DNA of 58,963 bases, filler included. It is 7 parts of 7 records of this genome, joined end to end, with 100 filler letters (N's around TTAATTAATTAA, not from the genome) between each part and the next. Parts side by side here need not be neighbours in the genome. Positions count along the whole stretch, not along the records: positions 6,200 to 16,824 come from SRR31156797_21214; 6 more parts are not named here. One strand, 5' to 3'. Within the stretch, counting starts at the first letter, position 1; every line of letters begins with the position of its first letter. Of this stretch, positions 6,100 through 39,324 are shown piece by piece. Under the pieces are notes generated by a model. It made no database searches. It had not been told where the DNA came from and worked only from the letters and a program-made list of their open reading frames with translations. The position numbers and the translations under genes were made by a program.

Positions 6100-6199
6100 N
6101 NNNNNNNNNNNNNNNNNNNNNNNNNNNNNNNNNNNNNNNNNNNTTAATTAATTAANNNNNNNNNNNNNNNNNNNNNNNNNNNNNNNNNNNNNNNNNNNN
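6100..6199. other. Artificial contig linker
   Basis: N-run with central TTAATTAATTAA (stops in all six frames), 100 nt. Confidence 0.99.
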
Positions 6200-6390
6200 A
6201 AGATTCGTTCCATTAGAAAATCCGTTGCAGAAAACCTAAGATGGGTGCCGAAATGGATTGGAAGGCAAATTACAACCCCGATATCTTGAAACAAGGTGCG
6301 GGGTTTTTCTGTTTGTGCTGTGATATGTCAAAGTGGGAAAATTCTGTTTTGTAGCACTTTAGTGAACCGGCCGGACGGCCTTGGATGCAC

Positions 6391-6438
6391 GTCCCGTTTC
6401 CCTCCTCACTGTGCGTAAGGGGCTCTTATACGGCGTTC
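6391..6438 (-). mobile_element. Degenerate group II intron domain V-like remnant
   Basis: Minus strand reads GAACGCCGTA-TAAG-AGCCC-CTTA-CG-CACAGTG: CGC triad, paired upper stem, CG bulge, partly paired lower stem. No RT gene present. Confidence 0.4.
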
Positions 6439-6543
6439 GTCTGATCAGGCAGGCCAATCGAGGAACGAAAATCCGCGTGAATTGAAATAGGTATCCGGCA
6501 AAAAAAGGGGGGCATACGTTTGACTGTTCTATGCGACAAGATA

Positions 6544-6586
6544 GGTCAAACGTAGATTTGACCCCTTGTACCCCTTGTACTTGTAC
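6544..6586. repeat. REP-like palindrome GGTCAAA-N6-TTTGACC followed by ACCCCTTGT tandem copies
   Basis: Inverted repeat and short tandem duplication visible in the intergenic DNA. Confidence 0.45.
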
Positions 6587-6800
6587 TGTCATGACAAGAC
6601 CCTAGGCCGTCCCTTTTGCATAAAAGCATGGGTTCTTCGGCATAATTATTGCGTTTATGAACAACACTTCATTTTGGATATTGATTGGACTGAATCTGTC
6701 CCTTCAATAACTTGTTAGGTTACTACTCGCCTTTGTTTCGGCATCCTTAAATCAATTCATAATTTCTGTGCTCTTATGAAAAAACAGGGGAAACTGTAAA

Positions 6801-9551
6801 ATGAGCAAAACTGAAACTCAAACTCGCTCCGAGCTTATTAATATGCAACTTGCTCGATCAGGTTGGTTTGGTTCCAGATTTTCTATCATAGAAGAAGCCC
6901 CTCTGTCAGTCGCCGAGGATAGTCCCCCCTATGGATATATACCTGCAAACAAAAAAGCAGAACGATTGGGTTTTGCTGATTATCTTCTTCTTGGTACAGA
7001 CGGAAAACCTCTTGCTGTCGTTGAAGCGAAGCGTACATCACGAGATCCGCTTGCAGGAAAGCGTCAAGCTGACGACTATGCAGATGCAATTACAGTTGAA
7101 TATGGACAGGCCCCCTTTATATTTTTAACCAATGGCAATGAAATACAATTCTGGGACAGAGAACGCTATGCACCAAGAAAGGTGGCCGGATTTTATACGC
7201 GTGATGATCTGGAACGATTAAACCATCAAAAGAAATATGCCCGGCCATTAAATGAAATACCGATTGCGTCAACTATAGCGGGTCGTGTTTATCAAAACGA
7301 GGCTATCCGAAGAGTTACAGAGGGAATTGATGCTGCAAAACGTAAATTTCTTCTGGTTATGGCTACCGGAACGGGTAAAACCCGAACGACCATTGCTTTA
7401 TCGGATGTGTTGCTTCGTGCCAAACGCGTTCAACGCATTTTGTTTCTCGCAGACCGCCGGGAATTAGTTCGACAGGCAATGTCGGAATTTAAAGCACACT
7501 TACCCCACGAGAGCCTTGCCCGTATCGAAGGCGGCCAAACATCCGGAGCACGCATCCAGTTTTCCACATATCCAAGCATGATGCAGGTATATCAACAGCT
7601 TTCCGTGGGTTATTACGACTTGATTGTTGCGGATGAAAGTCACCGTTCAATCTACCAGCGGTACAAAGCACTTTTTGACCACTTTGATGCAATACAGCTT
7701 GGTTTAACGGCTACTCCAACGGACTACATAGATCACAATACATTTGAGCTGTTTGACTGTGGTGACAATACGCCCAGCTATTATTACAGCTATGAACAGG
7801 CTATAAAAGATAAGAATCTTGTGAATTATCGGGTTCTCGACGCGCAGACCAATTTTCAATTAAAAGGGATTCAAGGCGATTCATTACCGGAACCTTTAAA
7901 ACAAATGGTTCTGGATCAAGGGGTGGAGCTGGATGAACTCAACTTTGACGGTTCCGAGATTGAAAAAAGCTTTATCAACAAAGGCACAAATGATGCCATG
8001 GCACTGGAATTCATGGATAAAAGCCGCAAAGATGCCCGTGGCTTGCCCCATAAATCAATTGTATTTGCAGTCAGTCACGCCCATGCAAAACGGTTGTATG
8101 AAAGTTTCAACCGGCTTTATCCGGAACTGCAACGGCAGGGGATGGCGGAAATCATCGACAGCCATATGGAAAGAGCCGATTCAACCCTGAATGACTTTAA
8201 ATATAAAAGCATGCCGCGCGTCGCCATTTCGGTTGACATGTTAGATACCGGCATCGATGTCCCCGCTATCCAGAATCTCGTTTTTGCCAAACCTGTATTC
8301 AGCAGGGTCAAATTCTGGCAAATGATAGGCCGCGGCACACGGTTACACACAGAGAAGGCAACGGGTGAAGTAAAAAAAGATTTCCTGATTATCGATCATT
8401 GGAAGAACTTTGCCTACTTTAAACTAAATCCGGATGGTGAAATAGATCACCCCAGCGAACCGCTGCCCGTGCGTTTATTCCGGCTGCGTCTTGAAAAATG
8501 GCAACTCATGCAGGCACAGCAGCTGGACACACAATCTGTAATCGATGAATTAAGATCCATGCTAAAAGCGTTGCCCCGTCAAAGTATCAACGTTAGGCCC
8601 CATTGGGATGAATTGGATGCATTGATCAACAAATGGCCGGCCCCGGACCAGGCCATCCTGGAACATCTCACTATGACCATTGCACCTTTAATGCGGTTAT
8701 CCATTTCGGCAGGGTTGGATGAACTCCAGTTTCATGTCTGGTGCGAGCGTTTTGCAATTGCATGGTTAAAAGGCGATACAAGTGATCAGGATAATATAAA
8801 AGAGCGCATCCAGGCAGCGGTTGCCGGTTTGGCCGAAAATATTCCGGATGTGAAAGATGCGGCTGAAGAGCGGGCATGGATATCTTCCGCTGAGTTCTGG
8901 CAACATATTGACCTGCCACGTTTAAAATCAATTCAAACGACGTTTGCCCCCCTTATGCGCTATCGAACCACCACACCTGGGAATACCATCGAGGTCAATC
9001 TGCCCGACAGCATTACCCGGAGAAGTTGGATTATCTATGGCCCCACCGGTGAAGGGGCATTTGCCGAAAGCTATCGCAAGCAGGTTGAGGCTCTGGTCCA
9101 TCGGCTTGCTGACCAGATCCCCGAGCTTGACAAGTTGAAACAAGGCCATTCTCTAACTGAAGAGGAATTGGAGAATATCAGTCAAACCCTGAATCAGGCG
9201 GATCTGTTTATCACCGAGACGACACTGCGCAAAGCCTTTGAGGTACCCTCCGCATCATTGGCTGATTGTTTGCGCCACATTCTTTGTGAAGACGTGCATC
9301 TTCCAAACAGAGAAGAAAGAATAAATGATGCGTTTGATACGTTCATATCCGATCATGGGTATTTGCGTGCAAACCAATTGAATTTTCTACGTGCCGTGAA
9401 GGCCGCCGTCATCAGTCATGGCCGCATCACACGAAACACACTCAGTGAGCCCCCGCTTTCCCGGGTAGGTCGAATTGAAATCCTCTTTCCTGAACAGGAT
9501 ATTGATGAACTGATTTATTTTGCCAACCAACTTTTAGAAGAAGTTGCATAA
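6801..9551 (+). CDS. hsdR: Type I restriction enzyme R subunit (EcoEI-like)
   Basis: Nuclease motif ADY...VEAKR, Walker A MATGTGKT, DESH box, QMIGRGTR helicase motif VI, EcoEI-type C-terminus. Confidence 0.95.
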   Translation: MSKTETQTRSELINMQLARSGWFGSRFSIIEEAPLSVAEDSPPYGYIPANKKAERLGFADYLLLGTDGKPLAVVEAKRTSRDPLAGKRQADDYADAITVEYGQAPFIFLTNGNEIQFWDRERYAPRKVAGFYTRDDLERLNHQKKYARPLNEIPIASTIAGRVYQNEAIRRVTEGIDAAKRKFLLVMATGTGKTRTTIALSDVLLRAKRVQRILFLADRRELVRQAMSEFKAHLPHESLARIEGGQTSGARIQFSTYPSMMQVYQQLSVGYYDLIVADESHRSIYQRYKALFDHFDAIQLGLTATPTDYIDHNTFELFDCGDNTPSYYYSYEQAIKDKNLVNYRVLDAQTNFQLKGIQGDSLPEPLKQMVLDQGVELDELNFDGSEIEKSFINKGTNDAMALEFMDKSRKDARGLPHKSIVFAVSHAHAKRLYESFNRLYPELQRQGMAEIIDSHMERADSTLNDFKYKSMPRVAISVDMLDTGIDVPAIQNLVFAKPVFSRVKFWQMIGRGTRLHTEKATGEVKKDFLIIDHWKNFAYFKLNPDGEIDHPSEPLPVRLFRLRLEKWQLMQAQQLDTQSVIDELRSMLKALPRQSINVRPHWDELDALINKWPAPDQAILEHLTMTIAPLMRLSISAGLDELQFHVWCERFAIAWLKGDTSDQDNIKERIQAAVAGLAENIPDVKDAAEERAWISSAEFWQHIDLPRLKSIQTTFAPLMRYRTTTPGNTIEVNLPDSITRRSWIIYGPTGEGAFAESYRKQVEALVHRLADQIPELDKLKQGHSLTEEELENISQTLNQADLFITETTLRKAFEVPSASLADCLRHILCEDVHLPNREERINDAFDTFISDHGYLRANQLNFLRAVKAAVISHGRITRNTLSEPPLSRVGRIEILFPEQDIDELIYFANQLLEEVA

Positions 9552-9566
9552 TAAAGGACCCAATAC

Positions 9567-12014
9567 ATGTTATCCCCACATATAAAAAAGAGAGTCGATG
9601 AACTCTGGAACCGGTTTTGGGCGGCAGGACTGACCAATCCCCTGGTCGCTGTCGAACAGATTACCTACCTGCTGTTCCTGAAACGGCTTGAAGATATTGA
9701 TTTGAAACGCCGGGAACGTGGTTTGACATCCATCTACAAAGACCATGAAACCTGCAAGTGGAGCTACATACGTCAGGAGAAAACAAATCCGACGCATCTG
9801 ATTGATGTGGTCTTCCCCTGGTTACGTGATCTGGACAAGCACTTCCAGTCAGATGCTGAAGAAACCAGTGAGCTGGCAAGTCTTAACAATCGGATGGCCG
9901 ACGCCTACTTTCAACTCGACCCCAACAAAGGCAAGGTGTTATCGGACGCCATCGACGCCATTGATCAACTCTTTGCCCGCACAGGGGACAGCTCCGCTGC
10001 CCAGGATATCATGGGGGACACCTTTGAGTACCTTCTCAGCGAAGTGGCGACTGCCGGAAAGAACGGGCAATTCAGAACGCCCCGCCATCTGATCCGTTTT
10101 ATGGTGGAACTGCTTGATCCGGAACCGGGGCAACGCATCATTGATCCGGCTGCCGGTACCGGAGGGTTTCTCTTTAGCGCACAGCTATATCTGATGAGAA
10201 AATATTCCGCGCAGGACAACCTGGTGCTGGAATGGGACGGTACACCCTATAGAACTGATGGCGCAGCAGCCACTTCGGATCAATATACCGCCATTCACAC
10301 CGGCGCAAACTTTGTCGGTCTCGACAATGACCGCACCATGGCCCGTATTGGCTGGATGAATATGGTGCTGCACGATATGTCGGACCCCCACCTGATCCAG
10401 GGTGATTCTCTCAGCAAGCGGGACGGAAAACCGCAACTCGCACACTATCTGGAACCGGAAGCTTACGACTTTGTTCTGGCCAATCCGCCATTCACCGGTA
10501 CGGTGGATAGTAACGACCTTGAACCGGATGCGGTTTTGTTTCCACGGGTTGGCGGAAAAGGGAAAAAAAAGGACAATGCCATCACCAATAAAAGCGAGCT
10601 CCTCTTTCTTTGGCTGATGCTTGATTTGATTCAGGTGGGGGGACGTTGTGCGGTGATTATCCCCGAAGGCGTTTTATTCGGCAATACCGATGCCCATGTG
10701 CGTCTCCGACGGGAACTCCTCACCGAGCATGTGGTTGAAGGTGTCATTTCCCTGCCGGGTGGCGTGTTCCAACCCTATACCGGGGTGAAAACCTCCATTC
10801 TTGTTTTCCGCAAAGAAACACGGCGCGATGACAAACAAACCTTTACCGGAGGAACCGAGCCACGAACCGATCATGTCTGGTTTTATGAAGTCGAGGAAGA
10901 CGGTTATACCCGAGATGCAAAACGCAATCCCCGACCCGGACAGACCAATGACCTGTGGGATGCCATCGAAAAATTCAAAGCATGGTCAGCAAGTGGAAGA
11001 GACGCAGCAAAACAGAATCAAAAAACCTTGCTTCAACCCTGCTTTCATATTGAACGCTGGCGTCATGCCTTGCTGCGTGATACCGCCGATAAACTCACCC
11101 CTGCCGGTGAAGCATTCTCCGGTTTGGCGGATGCCAGCATGTGGGACGGTCAGGTTTGGGGTATCCATGAACTCTTTCCTGAACTTCCGGCCGACCCGCA
11201 AGAGGCGGAAACACAAATCCGTGAAGCCGTAAGAGAAGTTCTCCGCCGGCTGGCGGAACGATTCTTTACCCCAACCCTAAAACCGCTGTGTCAAAAATGG
11301 GCAAAAGCGAAAAAAGAAATAACACCGGATAAAGCCTTAAAAGAGTGGCAGAAAGCAACGCGCATCCCGCAACAGGATTTCAACCGCGCTGCCCGGGAAG
11401 CTCATAAATATTTTGAAGCCAGCGACAGCCCGTCTCTGCCCCTGTGGAAAGAACTCACAATAGAAACATTAAGCAACGCCCTGGTCTTTGATGAATCCGT
11501 CGACATCAAAACCATAGCCGAAATTCCCGATCAGGAACCGGTTGCTGATTTGACGGCTGAGATGGCAGCCATCGCCCGCGAAGCCGCCAAGCTCGACGGT
11601 TTTGACATCACCCTTCGAAGTCTGGAAATCAACCAATCCCTTGAGTTGAAAGAAACCAAGCACTGGGTCGTGCCGGTTCGAGACTGGCTAAAAAATGACG
11701 AATGGCAATCCGACGACGGTCAACTAAAAGGCTCCCACGATGCCGATGGCATGGTGCGTCCGGCCTATGTGGACGCCATGCTTACCGAAGGGCTCTACGA
11801 TGACAAAGGAAAGCTCAAGGACGACCTGCTTGATCCGGATTGCATCGAAGCCCGCGACTGGAATCTCTCTGCCGGACAATACAAGCCCTTTGATTTCACC
11901 CAGCTCAAAAGCGATAAAAGTGTTGCGGAGTTGATCGCTGAACTTAAAAAGACCGAGTTGGAAATTATTAGTGGCTTGGACACCCTATTGGCAATGGTGG
12001 AGGGGCGGGCGTGA
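9567..12014 (+). CDS. hsdM: Type I R-M N6-adenine methyltransferase subunit with a large internal insertion
   Basis: EQITYLLFLKRL N-terminus, GQFRTPRH, DPAAGTGGF (motif I), NPPF (motif IV); 815 aa. Confidence 0.95.
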   Translation: MLSPHIKKRVDELWNRFWAAGLTNPLVAVEQITYLLFLKRLEDIDLKRRERGLTSIYKDHETCKWSYIRQEKTNPTHLIDVVFPWLRDLDKHFQSDAEETSELASLNNRMADAYFQLDPNKGKVLSDAIDAIDQLFARTGDSSAAQDIMGDTFEYLLSEVATAGKNGQFRTPRHLIRFMVELLDPEPGQRIIDPAAGTGGFLFSAQLYLMRKYSAQDNLVLEWDGTPYRTDGAAATSDQYTAIHTGANFVGLDNDRTMARIGWMNMVLHDMSDPHLIQGDSLSKRDGKPQLAHYLEPEAYDFVLANPPFTGTVDSNDLEPDAVLFPRVGGKGKKKDNAITNKSELLFLWLMLDLIQVGGRCAVIIPEGVLFGNTDAHVRLRRELLTEHVVEGVISLPGGVFQPYTGVKTSILVFRKETRRDDKQTFTGGTEPRTDHVWFYEVEEDGYTRDAKRNPRPGQTNDLWDAIEKFKAWSASGRDAAKQNQKTLLQPCFHIERWRHALLRDTADKLTPAGEAFSGLADASMWDGQVWGIHELFPELPADPQEAETQIREAVREVLRRLAERFFTPTLKPLCQKWAKAKKEITPDKALKEWQKATRIPQQDFNRAAREAHKYFEASDSPSLPLWKELTIETLSNALVFDESVDIKTIAEIPDQEPVADLTAEMAAIAREAAKLDGFDITLRSLEINQSLELKETKHWVVPVRDWLKNDEWQSDDGQLKGSHDADGMVRPAYVDAMLTEGLYDDKGKLKDDLLDPDCIEARDWNLSAGQYKPFDFTQLKSDKSVAELIAELKKTELEIISGLDTLLAMVEGRA

Positions 12015-13942
12015 TGTTTCCTGAAAGTTGGAGAGAGACAACTGTTGAAAACGTTATTCTTGATCTTCAGCCAGGCTTTGCTCAGAAACCTGGCGAAGAA
12101 AATGACGGCACAACTCCACAAATTCGCACACACAACATCACGCCTGATGGCAAGATTTCTCTTGAAGGAATTAAACACATTTCAGCCAGTGACAAAGAGT
12201 CCCAGCGTTATGCCCTGATAAAGGGTGATGTTATATTTAACAATACCAATAGCGAAGAGTGGGTGGGTAAATCCGCTGTATTCGACCAAGAAGGCGAATA
12301 CGTTTTCTCAAACCATATGACTCGATTACGGGTAAATCCTGAATTAATAATGCCAGAATACTTGGCTACGTATTTACACCTATTGTGGTCAATGGGGTAT
12401 TCGAAAACACGAGCCAAGCGATGGGTTAGCCAGGCTGGGATAGATGGTAAGGCTTTGTCCTCATTTAAAATCCTACTCCCCGCACTGCCCGAGCAAAAAC
12501 GAATCGTTGGTGTATTGCAGCAGGCAGAAACGATTCTTCAAGCAAAACAATCCGTTAACGATCAAATAGACAGGCTTGTTCAAACTGCCTATTGGGATCA
12601 CTTCAACGATTTTTACGCAGCCGATGGTTTACGTGGTCCCGTTCGAATCTCTGATTATGTGGAAGACTCGCAGTATGGCGTGTCTGAAGCTATGGCTGAA
12701 ACAGGATCGCACATCGTATTGAGGATGAACAGTATCACCACAAGCGGTTGGCTGAATCTAACTGATTTCAAATACGCCGATTTATCCCCAAAGGATATTG
12801 CAGCAACAAAGCTGAAAAACGGCGACCTACTTTACAATCGAACCAATTCCAGAGAGCTTGTGGGAAAATGTGCATTATGGAGAGGTTCAAAAGGGTCTTT
12901 CAGCTTTGCTTCTTATCTTGTTCGTTTTCGGTTGAAAGACGGAATGCTCCCTGAATATCTGTGGGCAACGCTGAATAGCGCTTACGGTAAATATCGCTTG
13001 TTCAACGCGGCCAAACAGGCCGTAAGTATGGCCAATATCAGCCCGACGGATTTAGGACGTATTACAGTTCCCCTCCCTCCTGAAAATCTACAGAAAAAAT
13101 TTGCTGAATTAATCAAGGAAATCGAACAACTGCGTGAAAAGATACTCTCCAGGTTGGACTCATTTCATGAGTTACAAGCGTTGGTGACCCAAAACGCATT
13201 ATTAGGGGAGCTATCAGAAAACTGGCGTGAGGCCAACAAAGAAGAAATTGCAGCTGCCGCTGCTGTTCGGGATGCATTGTTACGTGAACGCGGTGTGAAA
13301 CTAAAGACAGCGACGCCGGAACCTTCAGTTCCAGAAACCAAAGCAATTGAATCACTGACTCCTGCCCGGCAGTGGGTTGTTGGAGAATTAAGCGGATTCC
13401 AGCGTCAGGTGCTGGAGGCTTTTCTCAGCTACCCGGATCAGCCGCTTATTGTCGAAGATGAGAATGCGTTTATCACGTTTTGTGACAGTGATGAGGTAAC
13501 TGAACGGCTGCAAGATTTCGGGGCTGCATTGAACAATCGAATTCGACGGACCTTGAGCCAATTGGCGGCATTGGGATTGATCGTCAAGGTGGCGCTACCG
13601 AAAGATAACGAGGAAACAGGAGAACGGGAATATTTGAAAGCCTTTAGACCGTTTCGCGAAACGGATTTTTCCAAGTTAAGCGACATCAAATCGATCAAAC
13701 GGGCACTAAACCCACAGTCGGAAGAGCAGTTCTATTTTTTGGTCCATTTGGATTACGAAGCGTCTGAAAGTGCCGGTGCAGGAGGGATGTTCCAGGTGAT
13801 CTCGATCAAAGATGATGATGAAAAGGAATTTACCCATTTAATCAATCAAGGTGTTCATTATTCGTCTCTGGATGAACTTAAGGAGGACATCGCTTCAGCT
13901 CTCAAGGTATCTTCCCATCAGATTGAACTGGAGGAAGAATAA
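12011..13942 (+). CDS. hsdS: Type I R-M specificity subunit with C-terminal extension
   Basis: Two TRDs (GDVIFNNTNS / GDLLYNRTNS) each followed by conserved helices (LPALPEQKRIV / VPLPPENLQKKF). GTGA overlap with hsdM. Confidence 0.92.
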   Translation: MMFPESWRETTVENVILDLQPGFAQKPGEENDGTTPQIRTHNITPDGKISLEGIKHISASDKESQRYALIKGDVIFNNTNSEEWVGKSAVFDQEGEYVFSNHMTRLRVNPELIMPEYLATYLHLLWSMGYSKTRAKRWVSQAGIDGKALSSFKILLPALPEQKRIVGVLQQAETILQAKQSVNDQIDRLVQTAYWDHFNDFYAADGLRGPVRISDYVEDSQYGVSEAMAETGSHIVLRMNSITTSGWLNLTDFKYADLSPKDIAATKLKNGDLLYNRTNSRELVGKCALWRGSKGSFSFASYLVRFRLKDGMLPEYLWATLNSAYGKYRLFNAAKQAVSMANISPTDLGRITVPLPPENLQKKFAELIKEIEQLREKILSRLDSFHELQALVTQNALLGELSENWREANKEEIAAAAAVRDALLRERGVKLKTATPEPSVPETKAIESLTPARQWVVGELSGFQRQVLEAFLSYPDQPLIVEDENAFITFCDSDEVTERLQDFGAALNNRIRRTLSQLAALGLIVKVALPKDNEETGEREYLKAFRPFRETDFSKLSDIKSIKRALNPQSEEQFYFLVHLDYEASESAGAGGMFQVISIKDDDEKEFTHLINQGVHYSSLDELKEDIASALKVSSHQIELEEE

Positions 13943-15663
13943 TGCGCCTGCGCTACCTGCATCTACAGAACTACCCACCGATTTCGGACATTAAAGTCCG
14001 CTTTGCAAGCGGCTCCCCTCTGGGCCGTGAGTGCGCCATCCGTTTTGTGGTGGGGCTTAATGGAAGCGGGAAGTCCAATCTTTTGCGTGCCGTGGCGGAG
14101 CTGTTTCTGGCGCTGTCCGATGAACGGATTCCACCCTTTCCCATAACGCTGATCTATGAGTTGGGAATACGCGGCAGGTCCCGCCATTTTACCTTTGTCG
14201 TGGACTGCCCCGGCACAAAAGCCGAAGCCGCTGTCTGGGTGGCCGAAGGCTGGCATTGGCCGGACTCGGAAAATATTGAAACCTTTGAGTCGGCTGTGGA
14301 ACAGCTTCGTGAGACGGGTCAATATAATCATTTTCGCTACCACATCACCCGCGGAACCTGGCCGCAGCAACCGGGCATTGCCATGCCTGCTGCTATATTG
14401 GCCTACACCACAGGTGACCTGCGTCCATGGCAATCTGTCTGGGACCGGAATCAGGACGCTCAGGGTATCGTCACAGACTCAAGTGGGGAGACCGATCTGA
14501 ATGATGAACGACCGGCAGGGTGGAGTATCGACAAGGAACGGGCATTCCAGATATTGAGGGATGAACAAGACCTTGAAACCGATGGCCTTTCACTGCAAAA
14601 GAAGGCGAAATCACCGCTCTATCGTCGCCCGTTTTTACTGGATGCAACATTGCTCAAATGCGCTTTGTTGGCTTTGGCGTTACCACAGGCCGTCAATGGA
14701 GAGGAAAGCCAGAACAGTGAACTCCAGGAAATGCTAAAACGCGGGAACTGGCATCACCTCGTTTCAGTGGTTTTCCATTGCCATTTGCAAACCGGAAAAT
14801 GGAGTCCTCAATTATGCGAGACCGCTCATGATTTGTGGCATTGCGCCGGAGAGGTGGTTGCTGAACCGCATCCGGTTGAGCCCCGGCGTGCCGTATTATT
14901 TGACATAAAAGGTCATTTGGAACCACATGACCTGAAAACATACAATGATGATCTTGCATCATGCGCAACCCAAGGCGAAGCTTTATGGAATTTACTGGGA
15001 GGGGCCGGCGCCACCCCATTTGAGATGTTCACCCGTTTGCTGGAACTGAATCAATCCGGATTGTTCGATGAAGTCTTATTGCGTTTGCGCAGCCAACCCG
15101 CTCCGGAAGCAGATGTTGAAAATGAAGGTATCGATATCGGCGTGTTGCGCTATGAAGAACTTTCGGACGGAGAACAGATGGTATTGGGACGCATGGCGCT
15201 TTTCCATCTGTTGCAGAACCAACACGATGCGTTGTTGTTGCTTGACGAGCCTGAAACCCACTTTAATGATAAATGGAAACGTGAGATTGTCGACATCATT
15301 GGCGATGCCATCGGTAACACCGCAAATGACGTGCTGATTTCAACTCATTCCGCCATTGTCTTGTCTGACGTGTTTAACGATGAAATCGTGATGGTTGAAA
15401 AAACAGCCGAAGGTACCGGGGTGCGTTCTGTCGGAGAACTGACGTTTGCCACTGACCCGAGCGCCTTAATGATGACCATATTTGAGGCAGATGACAGTAT
15501 CGGAAAAAGGGCTCAGGAATATATTGAAAGAAAGCTTAAACAAAAGACAGGCACAGCAGAAGATATTGCCGATTTGGAACAATTGATTTCCCGAATGGGT
15601 ACAGGGTTTTATAGAAGTGAGCTGCGGACCTTAATAAACACATGGAAGGGGCAAAATGCTTAA
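13942..15663 (+). CDS. ABC-type/AAA ATPase associated with the restriction system
   Basis: Walker A GLNGSGKS, signature LSDGEQ, Walker B LLLLDEPETH, H-loop STHS, no transmembrane segments. TAATG overlap with hsdS. Confidence 0.9.
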   Translation: MRLRYLHLQNYPPISDIKVRFASGSPLGRECAIRFVVGLNGSGKSNLLRAVAELFLALSDERIPPFPITLIYELGIRGRSRHFTFVVDCPGTKAEAAVWVAEGWHWPDSENIETFESAVEQLRETGQYNHFRYHITRGTWPQQPGIAMPAAILAYTTGDLRPWQSVWDRNQDAQGIVTDSSGETDLNDERPAGWSIDKERAFQILRDEQDLETDGLSLQKKAKSPLYRRPFLLDATLLKCALLALALPQAVNGEESQNSELQEMLKRGNWHHLVSVVFHCHLQTGKWSPQLCETAHDLWHCAGEVVAEPHPVEPRRAVLFDIKGHLEPHDLKTYNDDLASCATQGEALWNLLGGAGATPFEMFTRLLELNQSGLFDEVLLRLRSQPAPEADVENEGIDIGVLRYEELSDGEQMVLGRMALFHLLQNQHDALLLLDEPETHFNDKWKREIVDIIGDAIGNTANDVLISTHSAIVLSDVFNDEIVMVEKTAEGTGVRSVGELTFATDPSALMMTIFEADDSIGKRAQEYIERKLKQKTGTAEDIADLEQLISRMGTGFYRSELRTLINTWKGQNA

Positions 15664-16759
15664 GCCCATCCATCGTGTCTGCGGCCGTGCTTTAGCAGCC
15701 TGTCAGCAATTGATGACAAATCTGGCTCTTTGGCTGACCGATTCGGGGGATTCGGGGGAAACATCGGCCGGTATTACGCGACAAAATATGCACGCCCCCC
15801 GATTCCCCACTGCCATTGAAGCGGACTGGCTTTGGAATTTTTTACAGAAAGTAGAGGATAAGAAACCACTTCTCGATCGAGCTAACATGATCGCAGATCT
15901 ATCAGTTGATGGGAAAAATGCCCTAAAGGATTGGATAGAAAACGTATCTCAATTAGCACTACAGTTTCGACCATCACCACCTATAGCTTGGCCAGTTACA
16001 CGTCCGAACTTAGATTCCACAGTATGGACAGCTTTCAAAATTTTAATGGAATCGTTTTATAAAAAGGGACTTCGCAGCGGTTTGCCCTATCTCGCAGATG
16101 GAACACCGGTCGCTTCTGGTGGGGTTAATTACAAAGTGTTTGTAGAAACGTTTCGGAATATGCATCGTTCAAATGCCAACCCAAACGCCCGGGAGGTGTG
16201 CGTATTGTGCGGCGGCCCTTTGGAACAACCTGAAGTCGATCACTGGATTGCAAAGAATGCTTTTCCATTACTCAGCGTCTGTGCTGACAACCTCCTTCCC
16301 ATTTGCGGCAAATGTAACTCAAAATCCAACAAGGGCGAAAAACCAGTGCACAGCAATGGCTGTTTTGATGACTGGTTTCATCCCTATCACAGACATGCCA
16401 ACGGCAGATTGTGTTTGGATTATGTTTTGCAAGCTATGAAAGTGGAATGCAACGCAAAACAACCGATTGATCAACCAAAGGTAATCAATCTCGATGGTCT
16501 ACTCAACTTATCAAGTCGCTGGACACGTGAATTCAAGGCAGAGTATGCCAAACATCAAAATATTCTTCGCCGGAGAGAACAAAACCGCATCGACAGTGAA
16601 AAGAATAGACATTCTCAAGCTGATATCCAAAATTACGTACAAGGCTGGAAAGATGATCTGCTCCCGAGTGAACCCCATTATGAAGTGCATTTGCTTCTTT
16701 CCGATGCCCTTTTGGAACCAAACTGCCTTGCAGCATGGACAACCGAATTGAATTTTTAA
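15656..16759 (+). CDS. HNH endonuclease (zinc-binding)
   Basis: CVLC...EVDHWIAK...NLLPICGKCN motif; 8-nt overlap with the ATPase stop. Confidence 0.85.
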   Translation: MLKPIHRVCGRALAACQQLMTNLALWLTDSGDSGETSAGITRQNMHAPRFPTAIEADWLWNFLQKVEDKKPLLDRANMIADLSVDGKNALKDWIENVSQLALQFRPSPPIAWPVTRPNLDSTVWTAFKILMESFYKKGLRSGLPYLADGTPVASGGVNYKVFVETFRNMHRSNANPNAREVCVLCGGPLEQPEVDHWIAKNAFPLLSVCADNLLPICGKCNSKSNKGEKPVHSNGCFDDWFHPYHRHANGRLCLDYVLQAMKVECNAKQPIDQPKVINLDGLLNLSSRWTREFKAEYAKHQNILRRREQNRIDSEKNRHSQADIQNYVQGWKDDLLPSEPHYEVHLLLSDALLEPNCLAAWTTELNF

Positions 16760-16824
16760 TAGAAATGGGCCTAGGGTCGGACCAAGCTAACATGTTGCAA
16801 TGATAGTAAATAGCGTGAAAATAT

Positions 16825-16924
16825 NNNNNNNNNNNNNNNNNNNNNNNNNNNNNNNNNNNNNNNNNNNNTTAATTAATTAANNNNNNNNNNNNNNNNNNNN
16901 NNNNNNNNNNNNNNNNNNNNNNNN
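16825..16924. other. Artificial contig linker
   Basis: N-run with TTAATTAATTAA. Confidence 0.99.
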
Positions 16925-17337
16925 TAACTGCTGAAGAGTTTGAAGAGATGAAAAAGCATACCATCTATGGAAGAGATGCATTAATTACAGCTGAAAACGA
17001 ACTTAAATCAAATTCATTCCTGCATTATGCCAAAGAGATTGCATATACTCATCATGAGAAGTGGGATGGTTCCGGTTACCCTAGAGGTCTGGTAGGAGAG
17101 GAAATTCCTATTTGTGGTCGTCTGATGGCTCTTGCTGACGTTTATGATGCTCTTATTAATAAAAGAGTCTATAAACCCTCTTTTACGCACGAAGATGCTA
17201 AAAAGATAATCCTTGACGGGAAGGGGAAACACTTTGATCCTGATTTAATTCAAGCATTTATTGAATTAGAAGATAAATTCAAAGAGATCGCTGATAAATA
17301 TAGAGATAATTCACAGGATGCTAAAATTGAAAACTAA
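16925..17337 (+). CDS. HD-GYP phosphodiesterase domain protein, 5'-truncated
   Basis: HHEKWDGSGYP and ADVYDAL motifs; frame is open to the contig edge. Confidence 0.92.
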
Positions 17338-17340
17338 ATT

Positions 17341-17386
17341 AAAATAAAAAAATAGAGTCTCGATTGAGATTCTATTTTTTTATTTT
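17341..17386. terminator. Bidirectional intrinsic terminator between the HD-GYP gene and truB
   Basis: AAAATAAAAAAATAGAGTCTC-GATT-GAGATTCTATTTTTTTATTTT hairpin between convergent genes. Confidence 0.75.
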
Positions 17387-18244
17387 AAAATATTTATACG
17401 GCTTAAGTGATTCTCTATTTGAAAGAGCTAAACCAAAAAACTCATTATCAAGATAAAGTCTGTACTTCCCATCTTTGATACCGAATACTTTAATTGTATT
17501 TCCATTTATAAGTAGTTTTTTCTGTTTTTCATCTTCTATTTTTATTTCCGGATAAGTAAAAGTTTCCTCTACCGATTTAATAAACTCGGTATTGTTATCT
17601 TCCATCATATTTTCTATTTCATCAAGTGTAAAAGAATTATTAATATTATAATTCCCAACTTCAGTTCTTTGCAAGTTAGTCATTGTTGCAAAAGTTCCTA
17701 ATTCTTCCCCTATGTCAAATATAAGAGATCTGATATAAGTCCCCTTTGAAACTTTACACTCCAAAACAGCTTTTTTTCCGTCAAATTCCAAAATATTTAT
17801 ATAATCAATTTCAACGTCTCTTGATTTTCTTTCTATTGTTTTACCTTCTCTTGCTAACTCGTAGAGTTTTTTTCCATCAACTTTTATGGCTGAATACATT
17901 GGAGGAACTTGTTTAATTTTTCCAATAAATTTTTTACTAACTTCCTCAAGCTGATCTCTAGAAACTGAAAACTCCTCTACTTTATCTATAACAGTTCCTT
18001 CTGTATCATAAGTATCTGTCTTATATCCTAAATCTAACTCCGCTATATATACTTTACTTGCTGCCTCTATCTCTGATGCTAATTTTGTTGCCCTTCCGGC
18101 ACAAATTACAAGTACTCCTGTAGCTAAAGGGTCAAGGGTTCCTGTATGACCTAGTCTTCTCTCTTTTAAGCTTCTTCTTAAATTTCTAATTACATCAAAA
18201 GAACTTATTCCTTTTGGTTTATTTATGTTTATAATACCTTCCAT
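17372..18244 (-). CDS. truB: tRNA pseudouridine(55) synthase
   Basis: GHTGTLDPLATG, QVPPMYSAIK and SKGTYIRSL motifs. Confidence 0.97.
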   Translation of the reverse strand: MEGIININKPKGISSFDVIRNLRRSLKERRLGHTGTLDPLATGVLVICAGRATKLASEIEAASKVYIAELDLGYKTDTYDTEGTVIDKVEEFSVSRDQLEEVSKKFIGKIKQVPPMYSAIKVDGKKLYELAREGKTIERKSRDVEIDYINILEFDGKKAVLECKVSKGTYIRSLIFDIGEELGTFATMTNLQRTEVGNYNINNSFTLDEIENMMEDNNTEFIKSVEETFTYPEIKIEDEKQKKLLINGNTIKVFGIKDGKYRLYLDNEFFGLALSNRESLKPYKYFKIKK

Positions 18245-18291
18245 TTTTTACCTCTCAATATTTAATTTAAATGCAACACTTATATAATAAC

Positions 18292-18337
18292 AAAAAAATA
18301 AAAAAACCTCAATATTAATAAATTAATACTGAGGTTT
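18292..18337 (-). terminator. Intrinsic terminator after the NCS2 permease
   Basis: AAACCTCA..TGAGGTTT stem followed by a U-tract on the minus strand. Confidence 0.7.
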
Positions 18338-18349
18338 AATAATCTATTT

Positions 18350-19663
18350 TTAGTGTGCTAATATACTAAATAATGATAAAGCTGCTATAACCCACATTGC
18401 AGGTTTGATTTTATGTGCATCTCCTGCAGCAGCTGTAACTAATACATATGAAAGGAATCCAAAGCTAAGTCCTGTACTGATGCTATAAGTTAAAGGCATT
18501 AAAACAATTGTGATAAATGAAGGAATAGCTACTTCAAAATCTTTCAAATCAATATCTTTAACATTTTTAAACATATAAACTCCAACGATTATTAAAGCCG
18601 GTGCTGTAGCGAACGCAGGCACAATTCCAATAATTGGAGTAAATAAAAGTGCTAATAGGAAAAATACAGCTGTTACAACTGACGCTAATCCTGTTCTAGC
18701 TCCTGCTGCAATTCCTGAAGCAGCTTCAATATAACAAGTAGTTGTACTTGTACCAAGTACTGATCCTGCAACTGTTGCAATTGCATCAGCTTCTAGAATT
18801 TTTCCTACTTTTTCAATTCTTCCATCTTCTTTAACCATTCCAGCTTCATACGAACAAGCCATGATTGTTCCAACAGAATCAAATAAATCAACAAACATAA
18901 ATGAGAAAATTGCACCCATCATGCTGAATTTTATAGCTCCCATAATATCTAATTTAAAAGCAATCGGCATAATTGAAGGTGGAGTTGATATAACTGCTCC
19001 CGGAAGTTGTACTTGTCCAGTAACTAATCCTAAAATTGTAATAACAACGATCCCTATCAATAAAGAACCTTTTACTTGTTTAATCTCTAAAATCGTAATT
19101 AATATTAATCCAATTAATCCTAAAACTAGTGGTGTAGTAAATGCTCCTAACCCAACTAAAGTTGCCGGATTATCAACTACTAAACCTAAATTTTGTAGTC
19201 CGATAAATGTTATGAAAAGTCCAATTCCTGCAGATACAGCAAGTCTTAATGATACCGGAATAGCGTCTACTATTTTTTCTCTAACACCAATTAGTGTTAA
19301 TATTAAAAACATGATTCCTGATAGAAATACTACTCCAAGCGCTTGCTCCCAAGATGCTCCTTTTCCCATAACTAATGTATATGTAAAAAACGCATTAAGT
19401 CCCATACCCGGTGCCATTGCAAATGGTACATTACACCATAAACCTGTAATCATCGTACCAATAAAAGAAGCTAAACATGTAACTGTTATTAATGCTCCCT
19501 TATCCATTCCTGTTGCTCCTAAAATATTAGGGTTAACAAAAATGATGTACGCCATAGTGATAAAAGTTGTAAGTCCACCGATCACTTCAGTTTTAACATT
19601 TGTGTTGTGCTCAGTTAACTTAAAAAAGTTGTCCAAAAAACCTCTCTTCATTGTTTTTTCCAT
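18350..19663 (-). CDS. NCS2/AzgA-family guanine/hypoxanthine permease (PbuG-like)
   Basis: TTFITMAYIIFVNP, APGMGLNAFF and GARTGLAS motifs; preceded by a purine riboswitch. Confidence 0.95.
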   Translation of the reverse strand: MEKTMKRGFLDNFFKLTEHNTNVKTEVIGGLTTFITMAYIIFVNPNILGATGMDKGALITVTCLASFIGTMITGLWCNVPFAMAPGMGLNAFFTYTLVMGKGASWEQALGVVFLSGIMFLILTLIGVREKIVDAIPVSLRLAVSAGIGLFITFIGLQNLGLVVDNPATLVGLGAFTTPLVLGLIGLILITILEIKQVKGSLLIGIVVITILGLVTGQVQLPGAVISTPPSIMPIAFKLDIMGAIKFSMMGAIFSFMFVDLFDSVGTIMACSYEAGMVKEDGRIEKVGKILEADAIATVAGSVLGTSTTTCYIEAASGIAAGARTGLASVVTAVFFLLALLFTPIIGIVPAFATAPALIIVGVYMFKNVKDIDLKDFEVAIPSFITIVLMPLTYSISTGLSFGFLSYVLVTAAAGDAHKIKPAMWVIAALSLFSILAH

Positions 19664-23279: not shown

Positions 23280-23379
23280 NNNNNNNNNNNNNNNNNNNNN
23301 NNNNNNNNNNNNNNNNNNNNNNNTTAATTAATTAANNNNNNNNNNNNNNNNNNNNNNNNNNNNNNNNNNNNNNNNNNNN
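23280..23379. other. Artificial contig linker
   Basis: N-run with TTAATTAATTAA. Confidence 0.99.
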
Positions 23380-23402: not shown

Positions 23403-24692
23403 TTATCTCTCTTTTAAAGCTTCATCTTGATATCTGATCATTGGAGAGATGATATACTCTATCAATCTTCTTTTTGAAAGTTTGATATCAACTGTACACG
23501 TCATCCCTGGAATCAATCTAATAAATCGATTATCTACTTTCATAGTATCACTTTGAAGCTCAACAGTAATAGGATAGATCTCCCCTAATTGCTCATCTTT
23601 AATTGAAGCATGTTCAATATGGGTGATAATCCCTTCTATATATCCATACTTTGTAAATTTAAAACTATCGATTTTTACTTTTACTTTTTGTCCTACTGAG
23701 ATAAATCCTATATCTTGATTAAGTACCTTTGCCTCAACTTCCAAAGGAGAATTTGATGGGATAAGTTCCATTATGGTACTCCCTGATTGAACGATTTTAT
23801 TGGATAAATACTCTCTTAAATTATGGATCATCCCATCACTTGGCGCATGGATAGATTGGGATTCTAAAAGATAGTTCATCTTTTCAACTTGTGGTTTTAA
23901 GATATTAAGCTCCTTTTCAATCTCATAGAGCTTTTGTCCATACTCTTTTAGGATATTGTTTGTATTTTGTTCCATCTCATTTTTTGTAATGATTTGATCG
24001 GAGAGGAGTTTTTGGACTTGGAGCTGTTTGATTTGCAGATCTTTTTCTATTGAGATATATTCAGCTTCCATATCTTTTAAAGTATTATCCGATTTAAGTC
24101 CTTTTTGCACTAGAGGAATTAGTTGATCCACTTTCCCTTTTGTAAAGGGAAGAAGCTTGGTGAGTTTATCCACTTCCAAACGGGCTATCTCTATCTCATC
24201 TTCCAATCTTTTGAGTTTTGATTCATATGTAGTCATATCACTTTTATATGAAGCGATATAACTATTTAAAATTCTACTAGTGTTTTTATCTTTTGTATCG
24301 TGTGAGTTTTTATCTATAAAGTCTATAAAGCCTTGTAAAAGGGTTTGTTCAAACACTAGATTATCATATTGTGCTTTGGTTTGTTTATATTCAAAGCTTT
24401 CAAGGTCTTTTTTAAAAGATACTAACAAATCCCCTTTTTTCACATTTTGACCATTTCTTACATAGATCGTCTCAATAGTACTTAACTCTTTTGTTTGGAT
24501 AGGTATCATTTGAGATGAAGTGATTATTTTTCCTTGAGATGGAACAATCACATCAATCTCACTCATAGTAAGCCAAATCACTACTGTTATAATAAACAAT
24601 CCAATAGAAGATGGGATCATCCACAATAAAAAAGAAGGTTTTTTAAAAATAACCGATTCAATACCTGGGATAAATTCAATATTTTCTTTCAT
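23403..24692 (-). CDS. hlyD: HlyD-family type I secretion periplasmic adaptor
   Basis: Single TM helix, VRNGQNVKKGD, coiled coil, DIGFISVGQ, PGMTCTVDI and IEYIISP motifs. Confidence 0.93.
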   Translation of the reverse strand: MKENIEFIPGIESVIFKKPSFLLWMIPSSIGLFIITVVIWLTMSEIDVIVPSQGKIITSSQMIPIQTKELSTIETIYVRNGQNVKKGDLLVSFKKDLESFEYKQTKAQYDNLVFEQTLLQGFIDFIDKNSHDTKDKNTSRILNSYIASYKSDMTTYESKLKRLEDEIEIARLEVDKLTKLLPFTKGKVDQLIPLVQKGLKSDNTLKDMEAEYISIEKDLQIKQLQVQKLLSDQIITKNEMEQNTNNILKEYGQKLYEIEKELNILKPQVEKMNYLLESQSIHAPSDGMIHNLREYLSNKIVQSGSTIMELIPSNSPLEVEAKVLNQDIGFISVGQKVKVKIDSFKFTKYGYIEGIITHIEHASIKDEQLGEIYPITVELQSDTMKVDNRFIRLIPGMTCTVDIKLSKRRLIEYIISPMIRYQDEALKER

Positions 24693-26839: not shown

Positions 26840-28097
26840 TTATATATCCATTAAGTGTTGTTATAAAGTGTTCATCTAATTTATCAGTTTCATAATATAA
26901 ACTTGCAAGTTCGCTTAAAAGTAGATATTTATATTCTACATATTTATTATATTTTTCAAAGTATTTATTGGTCTCATCTAAAAGCTCAACCAAAGACTTC
27001 ATCCCTGAATTAAATTCCTCTTTTAAAGCAAGAAGACGTAACTCTTTAGCATCAATAATTCCAGGGTAAAGCGCTAGGATCTTTTGATATGTAGTGATCT
27101 TTAGATGACTGTTTTTGAGCTTCTCATATTGCTCCATTTTTAGATCCTCTAGCTCTTTTTGTTGCTGCTTTTGTTTAAGGCTTGACTGTTCAAGGTTGTG
27201 GTATTTTGAAAACCCTTCAAAAAGAGGGATCGTCAATACTAAACTTACAGTATTACTCTCACTACTTGTACCAACATCTAGATCAAGATATTCATAGTTT
27301 GCACTGAGTGTTGGCTCAAATTGAGTATATGCGATACTTTTATCGATATTTGATTGTTCTATTTTAATATGGGTGGTTTTTATCTCATAGTTATTCTCTA
27401 AAGCTGTTTCAAAATAATGAAAGTTTTGAATCTTTGAGGGGATCATATGGATGTTGTTATATACATCAATACCTTTTTGTAAAGTAAGTTTTTCTAAAAG
27501 TACTTTGAGATTTTCAAGCTCAAGTTCAAGCTCAAACTCAGAAGCATCTTGTTCATACTTTTGACTTAAACTCTCTTGATACTCTGCTTTTGAGATAAAC
27601 CCATGTTTATATTCAAGCTCTGCTTTTTGTACGATCTTTTCTATATGGTTTTTTTTATGACCACTAAGCTCTATTTGTTTCTTTTTAAAAAGAGTTTTTA
27701 AATAAGTTTGGATCACTTCTAAGACTAACTTTGCTTTTTCATTATGCATATCAAGCTGTGTTAAAGTAAAATTACTTTTCTCTTTTTTAGAGTTTAAGTA
27801 TTGGCTTCTATCATAAATAACCTGCTCTATATTTAAAGTTCCCTCTACACTTTTATTATCATCTTGCAAAGTTTTATCCCTAAAGCTAGTCTGAACATCA
27901 TAACTAAACTCTGCGGATGCGCTAGGATAATAAAATGATTTACTCTTATCTAGCTCTTTTTCTTGAATCTTATGAAGTAGTGTAGATATCTCAATCTTTG
28001 TACTATTTTCAAGAGCAAGATCTACAACCTCTTGAAGAGTATAAGTTTTTGAAAAAAGAGATAAAGAGAAAAATAGTAAAAAAATTACTATTTTCAT
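26829..28097 (-). CDS. TolC-family outer-membrane channel
   Basis: Signal peptide, duplicated OEP pattern (YYPSASA / FEPTLSA, TIPLFEG, SGMKSLVELLD), position in the T1SS operon. Confidence 0.88.
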   Translation of the reverse strand: MKIVIFLLFFSLSLFSKTYTLQEVVDLALENSTKIEISTLLHKIQEKELDKSKSFYYPSASAEFSYDVQTSFRDKTLQDDNKSVEGTLNIEQVIYDRSQYLNSKKEKSNFTLTQLDMHNEKAKLVLEVIQTYLKTLFKKKQIELSGHKKNHIEKIVQKAELEYKHGFISKAEYQESLSQKYEQDASEFELELELENLKVLLEKLTLQKGIDVYNNIHMIPSKIQNFHYFETALENNYEIKTTHIKIEQSNIDKSIAYTQFEPTLSANYEYLDLDVGTSSESNTVSLVLTIPLFEGFSKYHNLEQSSLKQKQQQKELEDLKMEQYEKLKNSHLKITTYQKILALYPGIIDAKELRLLALKEEFNSGMKSLVELLDETNKYFEKYNKYVEYKYLLLSELASLYYETDKLDEHFITTLNGYINEK

Positions 28098-28570
28098 GCT
28101 AGAGGCTTTTCATCAAGAATTTTATTGTTTTTCCCATCATATGTTACAATAGTTTGTTTCCCCTCTTTTGTGGTACTTTGGTATCGAAAGATCTTATCTT
28201 TTAACACACTTGTTCTAAGTGTTTCTATCATATACCCCTCTGTCTTATTAAGACTGATTAGATCAACGATCCAGTAGATATCTCCACTATCCCAGTCATC
28301 ATAAGCAAGTTTCCCTAGACCCATCTCAAGTCTTCTATTCACCTCTTCACTTACATTTGCCCAAAAAGCTATCCCTACACTTTTTTGATTATCATCTTTA
28401 AAAAGACGCAGTCTTTGTTTCATAAGTGGTGCTATTAAAAGCCACTCTAGATCACCTACAAACATACTATATCTATGTGGATTTGAATGGAGGATCACCC
28501 ATAAAGCCTCCCCTAAGATCTCCATCACTTTTGGTTTATTTGTATTACTGTTTTCTACTGGTTTTTCCAT
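28094..28570 (-). CDS. hlyC: RTX toxin-activating lysine acyltransferase (HlyC/CyaC family)
   Basis: LGEALW..HSNPHR (catalytic Ser/His), FWANVS, DWDSGD.YWIVD motifs; overlaps both neighbouring genes. Confidence 0.88.
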   Translation of the reverse strand: MEKPVENSNTNKPKVMEILGEALWVILHSNPHRYSMFVGDLEWLLIAPLMKQRLRLFKDDNQKSVGIAFWANVSEEVNRRLEMGLGKLAYDDWDSGDIYWIVDLISLNKTEGYMIETLRTSVLKDKIFRYQSTTKEGKQTIVTYDGKNNKILDEKPLA

Positions 28571-39224: not shown

Positions 39225-39324
39225 NNNNNNNNNNNNNNNNNNNNNNNNNNNNNNNNNNNNNNNNNNNNTTAATTAATTAANNNNNNNNNNNNNNNNNNNN
39301 NNNNNNNNNNNNNNNNNNNNNNNN
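39225..39324. other. Artificial contig linker
   Basis: N-run with TTAATTAATTAA. Confidence 0.99.

Follow-up and report, generated by a model that had tools for sequence, protein, structure and literature searches.

Why does a type I restriction-modification (R-M) operon, whose restriction and methylation genes appear intact, also encode directly behind its specificity subunit an ATPase and an HNH nuclease that resemble the two proteins of the Septu system? This question is raised by five genes, hsdR-hsdM-hsdS-ATPase-HNH, located at positions 6801-16759 (+) of the window, that is, the whole stretch of 58,963 nucleotides of DNA that was analysed. As an answer, which we hold at about even confidence, we propose that the ATPase-HNH pair is a Septu-type effector that is restrained and triggered by the methylase/specificity core (M2S1), serving as a guard of the restriction enzyme.

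The layout of the operon was established from the coordinates of open reading frames (ORFs) and from the letters at the gene junctions. The gene hsdR (6801-9551, +) codes for a type IB-like restriction subunit of 916 aa and is separated by a gap of 15 nt from hsdM (9567-12014, +), which codes for an N6-adenine methyltransferase of 815 aa with its core in aa 1-490. The specificity subunit of 643 aa, with two target-recognition domains in aa 1-420, is encoded by hsdS (12011-13942, +), whose start is GTG or an ATG one codon further on, and is followed by an ABC-type ATPase of 573 aa (13942-15663, +) and an HNH nuclease protein of 367 aa (15656-16759, +). As read from the sequence, genes overlap through GTGA between hsdM and hsdS, TAATG between hsdS and the ATPase gene, and ATGCTTAA between the ATPase and HNH genes. 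An earlier annotation of this DNA (hereafter, the sequence-only reading) had described five intact genes on one strand with stop/start overlaps, intact catalytic motifs and no reverse transcriptase. All of this was confirmed: the motifs were recovered in the R, M, ATPase and HNH proteins, and the ORF list of the operon contig contains neither a reverse transcriptase nor any further long ORF. Small ORFs between or behind the five genes are likewise absent from the contig.

Linkage of the pair to HsdM and HsdS

The neighbourhood of the pair was followed in two surveys. The genome survey covered one genome per species (185,579 genomes), in which 528 places encode the ATPase, and the best 80 of these 528 loci were examined; the metagenome survey was seeded on the HsdM extension and gave 98 confirmed matches, of which the best 80, corresponding to 79 distinct loci, were taken. 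Detection relied on tblastn, with seven segments as queries (R, M core, M extension, S core, S extension, ATPase and HNH), and on two home-built profiles. The ATPase has more than 1,300 detectable relatives, the first 120 of them with 60-91% identity. Sixty ATPase-seeded loci had at least 7.2 kb of sequence upstream and at least 1.1 kb downstream, and in 44 of them all seven segments were found in order on one strand. The other 16 were each short of at least one segment: ten only of the hypervariable S core or of a diverged S or M extension, five of hsdR, and one, L017, of R, M and S core. Among the 133 loci with at least 600 nt before the ATPase start, 127 have a match to the HsdS-extension profile no more than 400 nt upstream of it, the median distance from the end of the S frame to the ATPase start being 3 nt. 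In the opposite direction, loci seeded on the HsdM extension had the ATPase downstream in 54 of 59 cases with at least 2.6 kb of downstream sequence. Of the five metagenome loci without the ATPase, L106 has an integrase, L107 a Mutator transposase and L138 an IS66 element, and in L130 and L131 a deletion fuses M to the tail of the ATPase. When at least 5.2 kb of downstream sequence was available, both ATPase and HNH were detected by tblastn in 36 of 40 metagenome loci, and the remaining four carry a longer ATPase and a diverged fifth gene that keeps the pattern CxxC..(D/E)H..N..CxxCN. The linkage of the pair to type I R-M, which the sequence-only reading had proposed, is thus near-obligate in this family. 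The refuting condition named in that reading, homologues of the pair lacking type I R-M in most cases, does not hold here.

The genes of the cassette also diverge together. In 51 near-complete loci, pairwise identity of the ATPase rises and falls with that of R (rho 0.76), of the M core (0.83), of the M extension (0.77) and of HNH (0.66), but not with that of the S target-recognition domains (0.13); the pairs are non-independent and these values are descriptive. Such a pattern indicates that the cassette is inherited as one unit in which the HsdS specificities shuffle. The ATPase tree cuts across phyla, and the cassette was found in Pseudomonadota, Thermodesulfobacteriota, Acidobacteriota, Chloroflexota, Cyanobacteriota, Bacillota and Deinococcota. 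The nearest relative of the present operon comes from a metagenome-assembled genome (MAG) of Desulfamplus, with 85% identity in the ATPase and 91-95% in R and M core. A plasmid search returned one full five-gene copy, on a Pantoea plasmid and annotated with generic names by the Prokaryotic Genome Annotation Pipeline (PGAP), and complete genomes of E. coli gave zero DNA matches.

L017, on a contig of an Acidobacteriaceae MAG (8166-18471), was the only locus of the best 80 that has ATPase and HNH genes, both intact, in the company of no R, M or S core. It retains an ORF of 236 aa that consists of the HsdS winged-helix domain alone and overlaps the ATPase start, and it is flanked by genes for an SMODS-like nucleotidyltransferase (347 aa) and a patatin-domain protein of 1532 aa. 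L017 is nested in the crown clade of the ATPase tree and probably represents what a deletion has left behind in a defence island. The possibility that the winged helix exists as a free-standing adaptor was considered and rejected, because L017 falls in that crown clade and a search for short proteins gave 31 matches which were mostly fragments at contig ends. A separate sub-family (L114, L120, L126, L163, L032, L036 and L081) has a longer ATPase, of 654-679 aa, and a diverged HNH gene. Behind this gene, L114 carries a gene for a YhcG/DUF1016 PD-(D/E)xK nuclease and L120 one for a second AAA_21 ATPase, and the cassette seems to have taken up additional modules in these two loci.

Which subunit of the restriction enzyme the pair may depend on can be approached through loci that have lost hsdR. 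This gene lies directly upstream of hsdM in 96 of the 102 loci with at least 3 kb of sequence there. Five Pseudomonas loci (L050-53 and L063) show the arrangement hsdM-hsdS-ATPase-HNH with no hsdR within 10 kb on either strand. In two of these hsdR-less genomes, the HsdR of the operon used as a query gave motif-level matches only (E ~1e-4), and the model TIGR00348 gave one sub-threshold match 1 Mb away in G001 and none in G004; ResIII, with 14-19 places per genome, was too general a probe for hsdR. A further candidate, L071, which was considered as hsdR-less with the motif NPPF, was rejected, since another, different hsdR lies on its contig, about 3-6 kb outside the locus.

Among the 126 loci in which methylase motif IV could be read, only the five hsdR-less ones have a version other than NPPF or NPPY, namely DLPF, DLPF, DVPF, DLPL and DLPH, and the glycines of motif I are lost in three of the five. 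All of this clade keeps intact HNH residues and, in the ATPase, intact Walker A and B motifs. M shows lower conservation than the ATPase, an order that is reversed in the five-gene form, and S diverges in step with M over its full length with no domain swapping (S/M identities of 94/89, 39/45 and 50/50%). In a quick tree with midpoint root the five loci form one clade with long internal branches and a support of 100 in the Shimodaira-Hasegawa-like approximate likelihood ratio test (SH-aLRT), and the other members of the surrounding clade have hsdR wherever this can be read. The tree topology indicates that hsdR was lost in one event, which is old and stable. Since a nuclease aimed at unmethylated sites cannot coexist with a dead methylase, M and S would have to serve the pair non-catalytically in this lineage.

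A second indication comes from the sister family TIGR04435, in which six proteins of 1025-1135 aa (P0152-P0157) consist of a complete HsdS fused to a complete TIGR04435 ATPase, with scores of 305-609 bits where 300 is the cut-off. These fusions provide Rosetta-stone support for the view that S and ATPases of this kind may work as one machine.

The five proteins and their extensions

The HsdR protein was matched by the Pfam models ResIII (6e-34), EcoEI_R_C (1e-25) and HSDR_N, in keeping with a PD-ExK nuclease, an SF2 motor and an EcoEI_R_C tail, and its motifs D..EAK, GTGKT and DESH are intact. With 265.7 bits against the EcoAI/FtnUII equivalog model NF046051, below the cut-off of 550, it is related to the EcoAI family by its sequence and not an equivalog. 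HsdM has the Pfam domains HsdM_N and N6_Mtase (1.5e-50), with DPAAGTGGF as motif I and NPPF as motif IV, and HsdS is matched by Methylase_S in two stretches. Judged by these domains and intact motifs, HsdR, HsdM and HsdS are predicted to form a working type IB-like R-M enzyme. Both M and S are enlarged, as the sequence-only reading had noted: the type I methylase profile of PADLOC, of 491 positions, matches only residues 1-489 of the 815 aa of HsdM, and profiles of 392-461 positions match the 643 aa of HsdS to about residue 415.

The HsdS extension has three parts, a poorly conserved linker of low model confidence, a confidently modelled domain of helices and a beta hairpin, and an optional alpha/beta tail of 70 aa. 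The domain (residues 31-130 of the model, with a pLDDT (predicted local distance difference test) score of about 90; approximately aa 451-550 of HsdS, 13361-13660, +) is the feature most consistently tied to the ATPase across the family. Foldseek returned weak matches only, to winged-helix regulators and Orc/Cdc6 winged helices, the best being 6cmv (E 6e-3), and Pfam gave zero matches for either the HsdS or the HsdM extension. The profile picks up the domain in the clade without hsdR, at E 1e-13 to 1e-23, and recovers part of it in cyanobacterial loci and in several from Chloroflexota. Viral contigs yielded no relative of the HsdS extension. The tail (approximately aa 574-642, 13730-13936, +; consensus ..LDYETSE.AGAGGMFQV..) is present in about half of the aligned relatives and missing in the closest, L033, and the searches found no fold or function for it.

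The HsdM extension (aa 491-815, 11037-12014, +) is specific to the family and was modelled with a pLDDT of 79.8. It consists of a long helical hairpin, a less confident block with the pattern AKLDGFD..LRS..HW..PVR..W..GSHD, and the motif NLS..QYKPF with the canonical C-terminal helix. For its fold, Foldseek gave no match at E <=1e-3, and VIA-align in its wide form gave only generic helical bundles, at Z <=6.8 over residues ~51-160. In the hsdR-less clade only the last ~125 residues of the insertion are present, and in cyanobacterial loci only the canonical tail. The part of the insertion kept in the hsdR-less clade is the block at extension residues ~186-260 (11592-11816, +), in which G188, R194, K208, W210, R215, W223, S233, H234 and Y244 are invariant and model confidence is low; this block may serve as a second site of contact or as a small active centre. 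A prediction of the complex between the ATPase and the HsdS extension (residues 28-223) was run without controls and scored 0.00, a value with no bearing either way.

The ATPase was matched by the ABC-type Pfam models AAA_15 and AAA_21, and its Walker A (GLNGSGKS), signature (LSDGE) and Walker B (LLLLDE) motifs are intact. Its best PADLOC match was the PtuA model PDLC00293 (E 4.7e-31, residues 1-492), followed over shorter stretches by partial matches to the AriA model (E 3e-14, residues 360-474) and by PDC-M01A (E 4.8e-13, residues 427-551 only); the PrrC model was not among the 25 best of its 97 PADLOC matches. Against the PtuA model NF041760 the ATPase reached 30.4 bits, the cut-off being 500, and the ATPase chains of PtuB-containing PDB entries were found at E 5e-4. 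The sequence-only reading had pointed to a TIGRFAM family of restriction-system-associated AAA ATPases. That family, TIGR04435, is indeed the best NCBIfam match, but the protein reaches 108.3 bits, in two stretches, where the cut-off is 300, and is not a member. MADS was rejected as well, since MAD2, MAD3 and MAD5 scored 123 vs 720, 22 vs 420 and 38.5 vs 400 bits, and MANTIS was considered and rejected as a family. By the curated cut-offs, the ATPase falls outside PtuA, TIGR04435 and MAD3 and is classed only as a distant relative of PtuA, TIGR04435 and PDC-M01A.

The HNH protein was recognised by Pfam only below threshold (HNH, E 0.009). In PADLOC it gave PDC-M01B at E 2.9e-12 and weaker (core 173-313) and PtuB at E 7.4e-7, in NCBIfam no match to TIGR02646/PtuB was obtained at E 1e-3, and PtuB chains in the PDB were matched at E 0.009-0.045 over the 40-residue HNH core only. 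A search of the ESM Atlas gave 'HNH endonuclease' clusters only. The HNH/zinc-finger core of the protein (aa 182-221, 16199-16318, +) has the pattern CxxC...DH...N...CxxCN, and all 41 aligned homologues share its residues C182, C185, D195, H196, N212, C217, C220 and N221; the regions N- and C-terminal to the PtuB/PDC-M01B-like core are uncharacterised. In view of the PtuA score and of the NCBIfam result for the HNH protein, the pair does not score as an ordinary stand-alone Septu.

Weighing the proposed guard against its rivals

If the pair is a guard, the five genes would form one composite defence unit in which a PtuA-like ATPase and its HNH partner have become dependent on the methylase/specificity core. 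The pair would be held probably via the HsdS winged-helix domain, and perhaps also via the conserved block of the HsdM extension. At rest, the M2S1 core would keep the nuclease silent. Infection would then perturb the core, most plausibly when DNA-mimic anti-restriction proteins fill its DNA groove, and the perturbed core would release or switch on the ATPase-HNH pair. The active pair might cut tRNA, as reported for Septu and the PtuAB of retron-Eco7, or DNA, and this cleavage would stop the phage at the cost of growth. In the Pseudomonas lineage devoid of hsdR and, presumably, of methylase catalysis, the M/S core would be a pure decoy sensor, as in Ronin. By analogy, the R-M complex might take the place of the retron in restraining PtuAB, as the sequence-only reading suggested. 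A more detailed version, which we put forward only tentatively, is that the M/S core is a built-in sensor, that the winged-helix tail of HsdS cages the pair, that DNA-mimic anti-restriction proteins free it by closing the M2S1 clamp, and that the old Pseudomonas lineage is a pseudo-enzyme decoy that neither restricts nor methylates. If true, decoy immunity in the style of Ronin would have arisen a second time, independently and with another effector, and the system would be the bacterial equivalent of the integrated decoys that plant immune receptors carry.

Several points weigh against this proposal. Trigger and substrate of the pair are conjectured by analogy, and its binding to M/S is surmised for a family known from sequences alone. 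The winged-helix assignment depends on weak Foldseek matches, and the HsdS extension went undetected by profile in L068, L070, L074 and L166, was matched only weakly in L078 (E 0.0027) and was matched about 1 kb upstream of the ATPase in L023. The HsdM insertion is reduced or absent in two clades and is therefore not a universal docking site, which leaves the HsdS extension as the only consistent candidate. The sequence-only reading had postulated a guarded R-M complex with the pair docked on both enlarged subunits, and this is supported in part: coupling to M/S rather than to R is backed by the hsdR-less clade and the TIGR04435 fusions, and docking on the enlarged HsdM as a general feature is what had to be given up. 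Moreover, the hsdR-less clade represents a single event, is confined to Pseudomonas and counts once, and it is by analogy that its degenerate motif IV is taken to mean lost catalysis. Finally, many unrelated defence genes are described inside type I operons with no mechanistic coupling (Payne et al., bioRxiv 10.1101/2024.01.29.577857).

The main rival is that the pair acts as a second restriction effector: M2S1 at an unmethylated site would recruit the pair, which would cut foreign DNA independently of HsdR, so that one specificity/methylation module would serve two nucleases and inhibitors of HsdR would not disarm the cell. This explanation fits the five-gene form, whose intact methylase motifs and shuffling S domains are expected if DNA specificity matters, and agrees with HNH domains being commonly DNases and with the HsdS-ATPase fusions, which could reflect recruitment to a DNA-bound S; the four-gene M-S-ATPase-HNH loci, too, superficially resemble an R-M system with another nuclease. 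It does not fit the hsdR-less clade when this is looked at closely. There the pair would be the sole nuclease, yet motif IV is degenerate in five of five loci and S no longer swaps domains, and a site-directed nuclease acting without methylation would attack the host chromosome. In addition, the closest solved relatives, the PtuB proteins, are reported to cut tRNA-Tyr. We therefore consider a second restriction effector unlikely. The same clade enters into a related idea, according to which degenerate M/S, at least in the hsdR-less loci, directs the pair to modified or unusual phage DNA in the manner of type IV systems. An altered base-binding motif IV kept alongside two S recognition domains and intact effectors could be understood in this way, but there is no precedent for HsdM in such a role, and the variation of motif IV from one of the five loci to the next (its aromatic position being F, L or H) suggests relaxed rather than new constraint, which makes a reader of modifications very improbable.

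Two further explanations dispense with a response of the pair to inhibition of the restriction enzyme. The pair might be an autonomous Septu-like system that is merely embedded in a type I operon and shares its transcription and transfer, with no physical or regulatory coupling. Independent systems are indeed often found inside type I R-M, BREX, DISARM and Hma loci (Payne et al., bioRxiv 10.1101/2024.01.29.577857), and the PtuA and PDC-M01 models of PADLOC match both proteins. Embedding is nevertheless hard to reconcile with a near-obligate link accompanied by family-specific changes in HsdS and HsdM, with the co-divergence of the pair with R and M, with the retention of M/S bearing a dead methylase motif after the loss of hsdR, and with the HsdS-ATPase fusions of the sister family; stand-alone copies among the best 80 loci amount to L017, the likely deletion remnant. 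We regard it as improbable. A similarly low probability is assigned to the pair being an addiction or maintenance module, which would kill or arrest cells that lose or unbalance M/S (post-segregational killing), or tune restriction on establishment in a new host, and would not respond to phages. The mobility of the cassette, seen in a tree that crosses phyla and in the Pantoea plasmid copy, would suit such a role, and restraint of a toxic nuclease by M/S would yield the same behaviour as a by-product. Relatives of both proteins, however, are known from anti-phage systems, and type I systems have their own establishment control.

Few guards are known that punish phages for their anti-restriction proteins, namely PrrC, PARIS, Ronin and EcoR22I. 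Should the pair be a guard, its 528 places in 185,579 species genomes would make back-up immunity built directly into type I enzymes a common and not an exceptional feature, and the operon would show a Septu-type effector re-plugged from a retron onto an R-M core. Phage therapy and DNA transfer would also meet in such operons a barrier that is not simply switched off by anti-restriction genes. As a natural experiment, the hsdR-less clade with its dead methylase motif opens the idea to direct testing. As a type, the system belongs with R-M guards and decoys, with a Septu-type effector, and is not a new category. The constant HsdS winged-helix link, the result of the reverse survey and the hsdR-less clade with a degenerate methylase are new here. 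The cassette has so far been catalogued only generically, and among the papers returned by a literature search, whose scope excluded the supplements of Payne et al. and Silas et al., none dealt by experiment or comparison with a PtuAB-like pair in a type I operon.

Genomic setting and known systems

The window consists of seven contigs joined by N44-TTAATTAATTAA-N44 spacers, with joints at 6100-6199, 16825-16924, 23280-23379, 39225-39324, 45141-45240 and 53309-53408. The first two of these mark the left and right ends of the contig that holds the operon, and the operon is the sole content of this contig of 10,625 bp (6200-16824; GC content 0.478). In order, the GC contents of the contigs are 0.416, 0.478, 0.308, 0.352, 0.309, 0.493 and 0.332. 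Since the contigs adjoining that of the operon have values of 0.31-0.42, genes outside 6200-16824 are not its genomic context, and gene neighbourhoods spanning the joints are not real; given the span of 0.31-0.49, the assembly may mix organisms (a mixed bin). Upstream of the operon lies a non-coding leader (6200-6800, +), whose conservation with the closest relative, L033, is confined to the last 42 nt. Rfam gave zero family matches on the operon contig. A promoter scan stayed at chance level (14 vs 13.2), and terminator-like elements numbered 21 vs 12.5 with no convincing internal terminator.

Two loci on other contigs were recorded. An ORF of 3378 aa with RTX calcium-binding repeats (28570-38706, -) lies beside genes for an ABC exporter (24692-26839; ABC_membrane and ABC_tran) and an outer-membrane efflux protein (26829-28097), and together they look like a type I secretion locus with a giant substrate. 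On the contig with a GC content of 0.49, the region 45955-53062 (-) encodes a VgrG-like protein of 1061 aa (Phage_GPD), then a DUF2169 protein with pentapeptide repeats and then a second pentapeptide-repeat protein; by its domains it is classed as a type VI secretion spike and accessory cluster.

Of the catalogued families, TIGR04435, the 'restriction system-associated AAA family ATPase', resembles the ATPase of the operon in its similar length and in the same theme of neighbourhood. The PADLOC candidate PDC-M01, compared by its models alone, covers in the ATPase no more than the C-terminal third and in the HNH protein no more than the core. Both are catalogued with no tested function. Payne et al. 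(bioRxiv 10.1101/2024.01.29.577857) describe candidates obtained by 'guilt by embedding' in type I R-M loci. The PtuA-PtuB proteins of Septu and of retrons Ec78/Eco7 share with the present pair the arrangement of an ABC ATPase and an HNH nuclease as an overlapping pair, which in the retron form is restrained by a third component, and Septu and the PtuAB of retron-Eco7 are reported to cleave tRNA-Tyr (PMC13096335, PMC12673091). In contrast, the present HNH protein is about 150 aa longer than PtuB, and the pair is tied to type I M/S and stands neither alone nor beside a reverse transcriptase.

Among the systems described as guardians of R-M, PARIS is similar in that its ABC ATPase AriA is a scaffold that holds a nuclease and releases it on Ocr (PMC12707154), and different in that it senses Ocr directly without R-M proteins and uses the Toprim effector AriB, not an HNH protein. 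PrrC, the other guardian named in the same paper, is kept latent by EcoprrI and activated by Stp of phage T4. Like the present pair, it brings a latent nuclease and an ABC-type ATPase part into a type I operon, and it is thought to be silenced by the R-M enzyme until a phage inhibits the latter (PMC12707154). PrrC is a single polypeptide with its own anticodon-nuclease domain, located among the hsd genes of a type IC system, whereas the operon described here has a separate ATPase and HNH protein behind a type IB-like hsdS, together with dedicated extensions of HsdS and HsdM. Ronin consists of hsdS and hsdM without hsdR and of the toxin RonA, is triggered by Ocr, ArdA and Aop1, and is described as not requiring methylase catalysis (Silas et al., bioRxiv 10.1101/2023.04.06.535777). 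Restraint of a toxic effector by an HsdM/HsdS core is what the present system would have in common with it, and the hsdR-less Pseudomonas relatives share with Ronin the absence of hsdR and a dispensable or degenerate methylase. The effector of Ronin is a membrane protein of 61 aa and its M/S core, as far as the text of that paper shows, is without the extensions, while the present operon keeps an intact hsdR and methylase and has an ATPase-HNH effector; only L050-53 and L063 resemble the architecture of Ronin.

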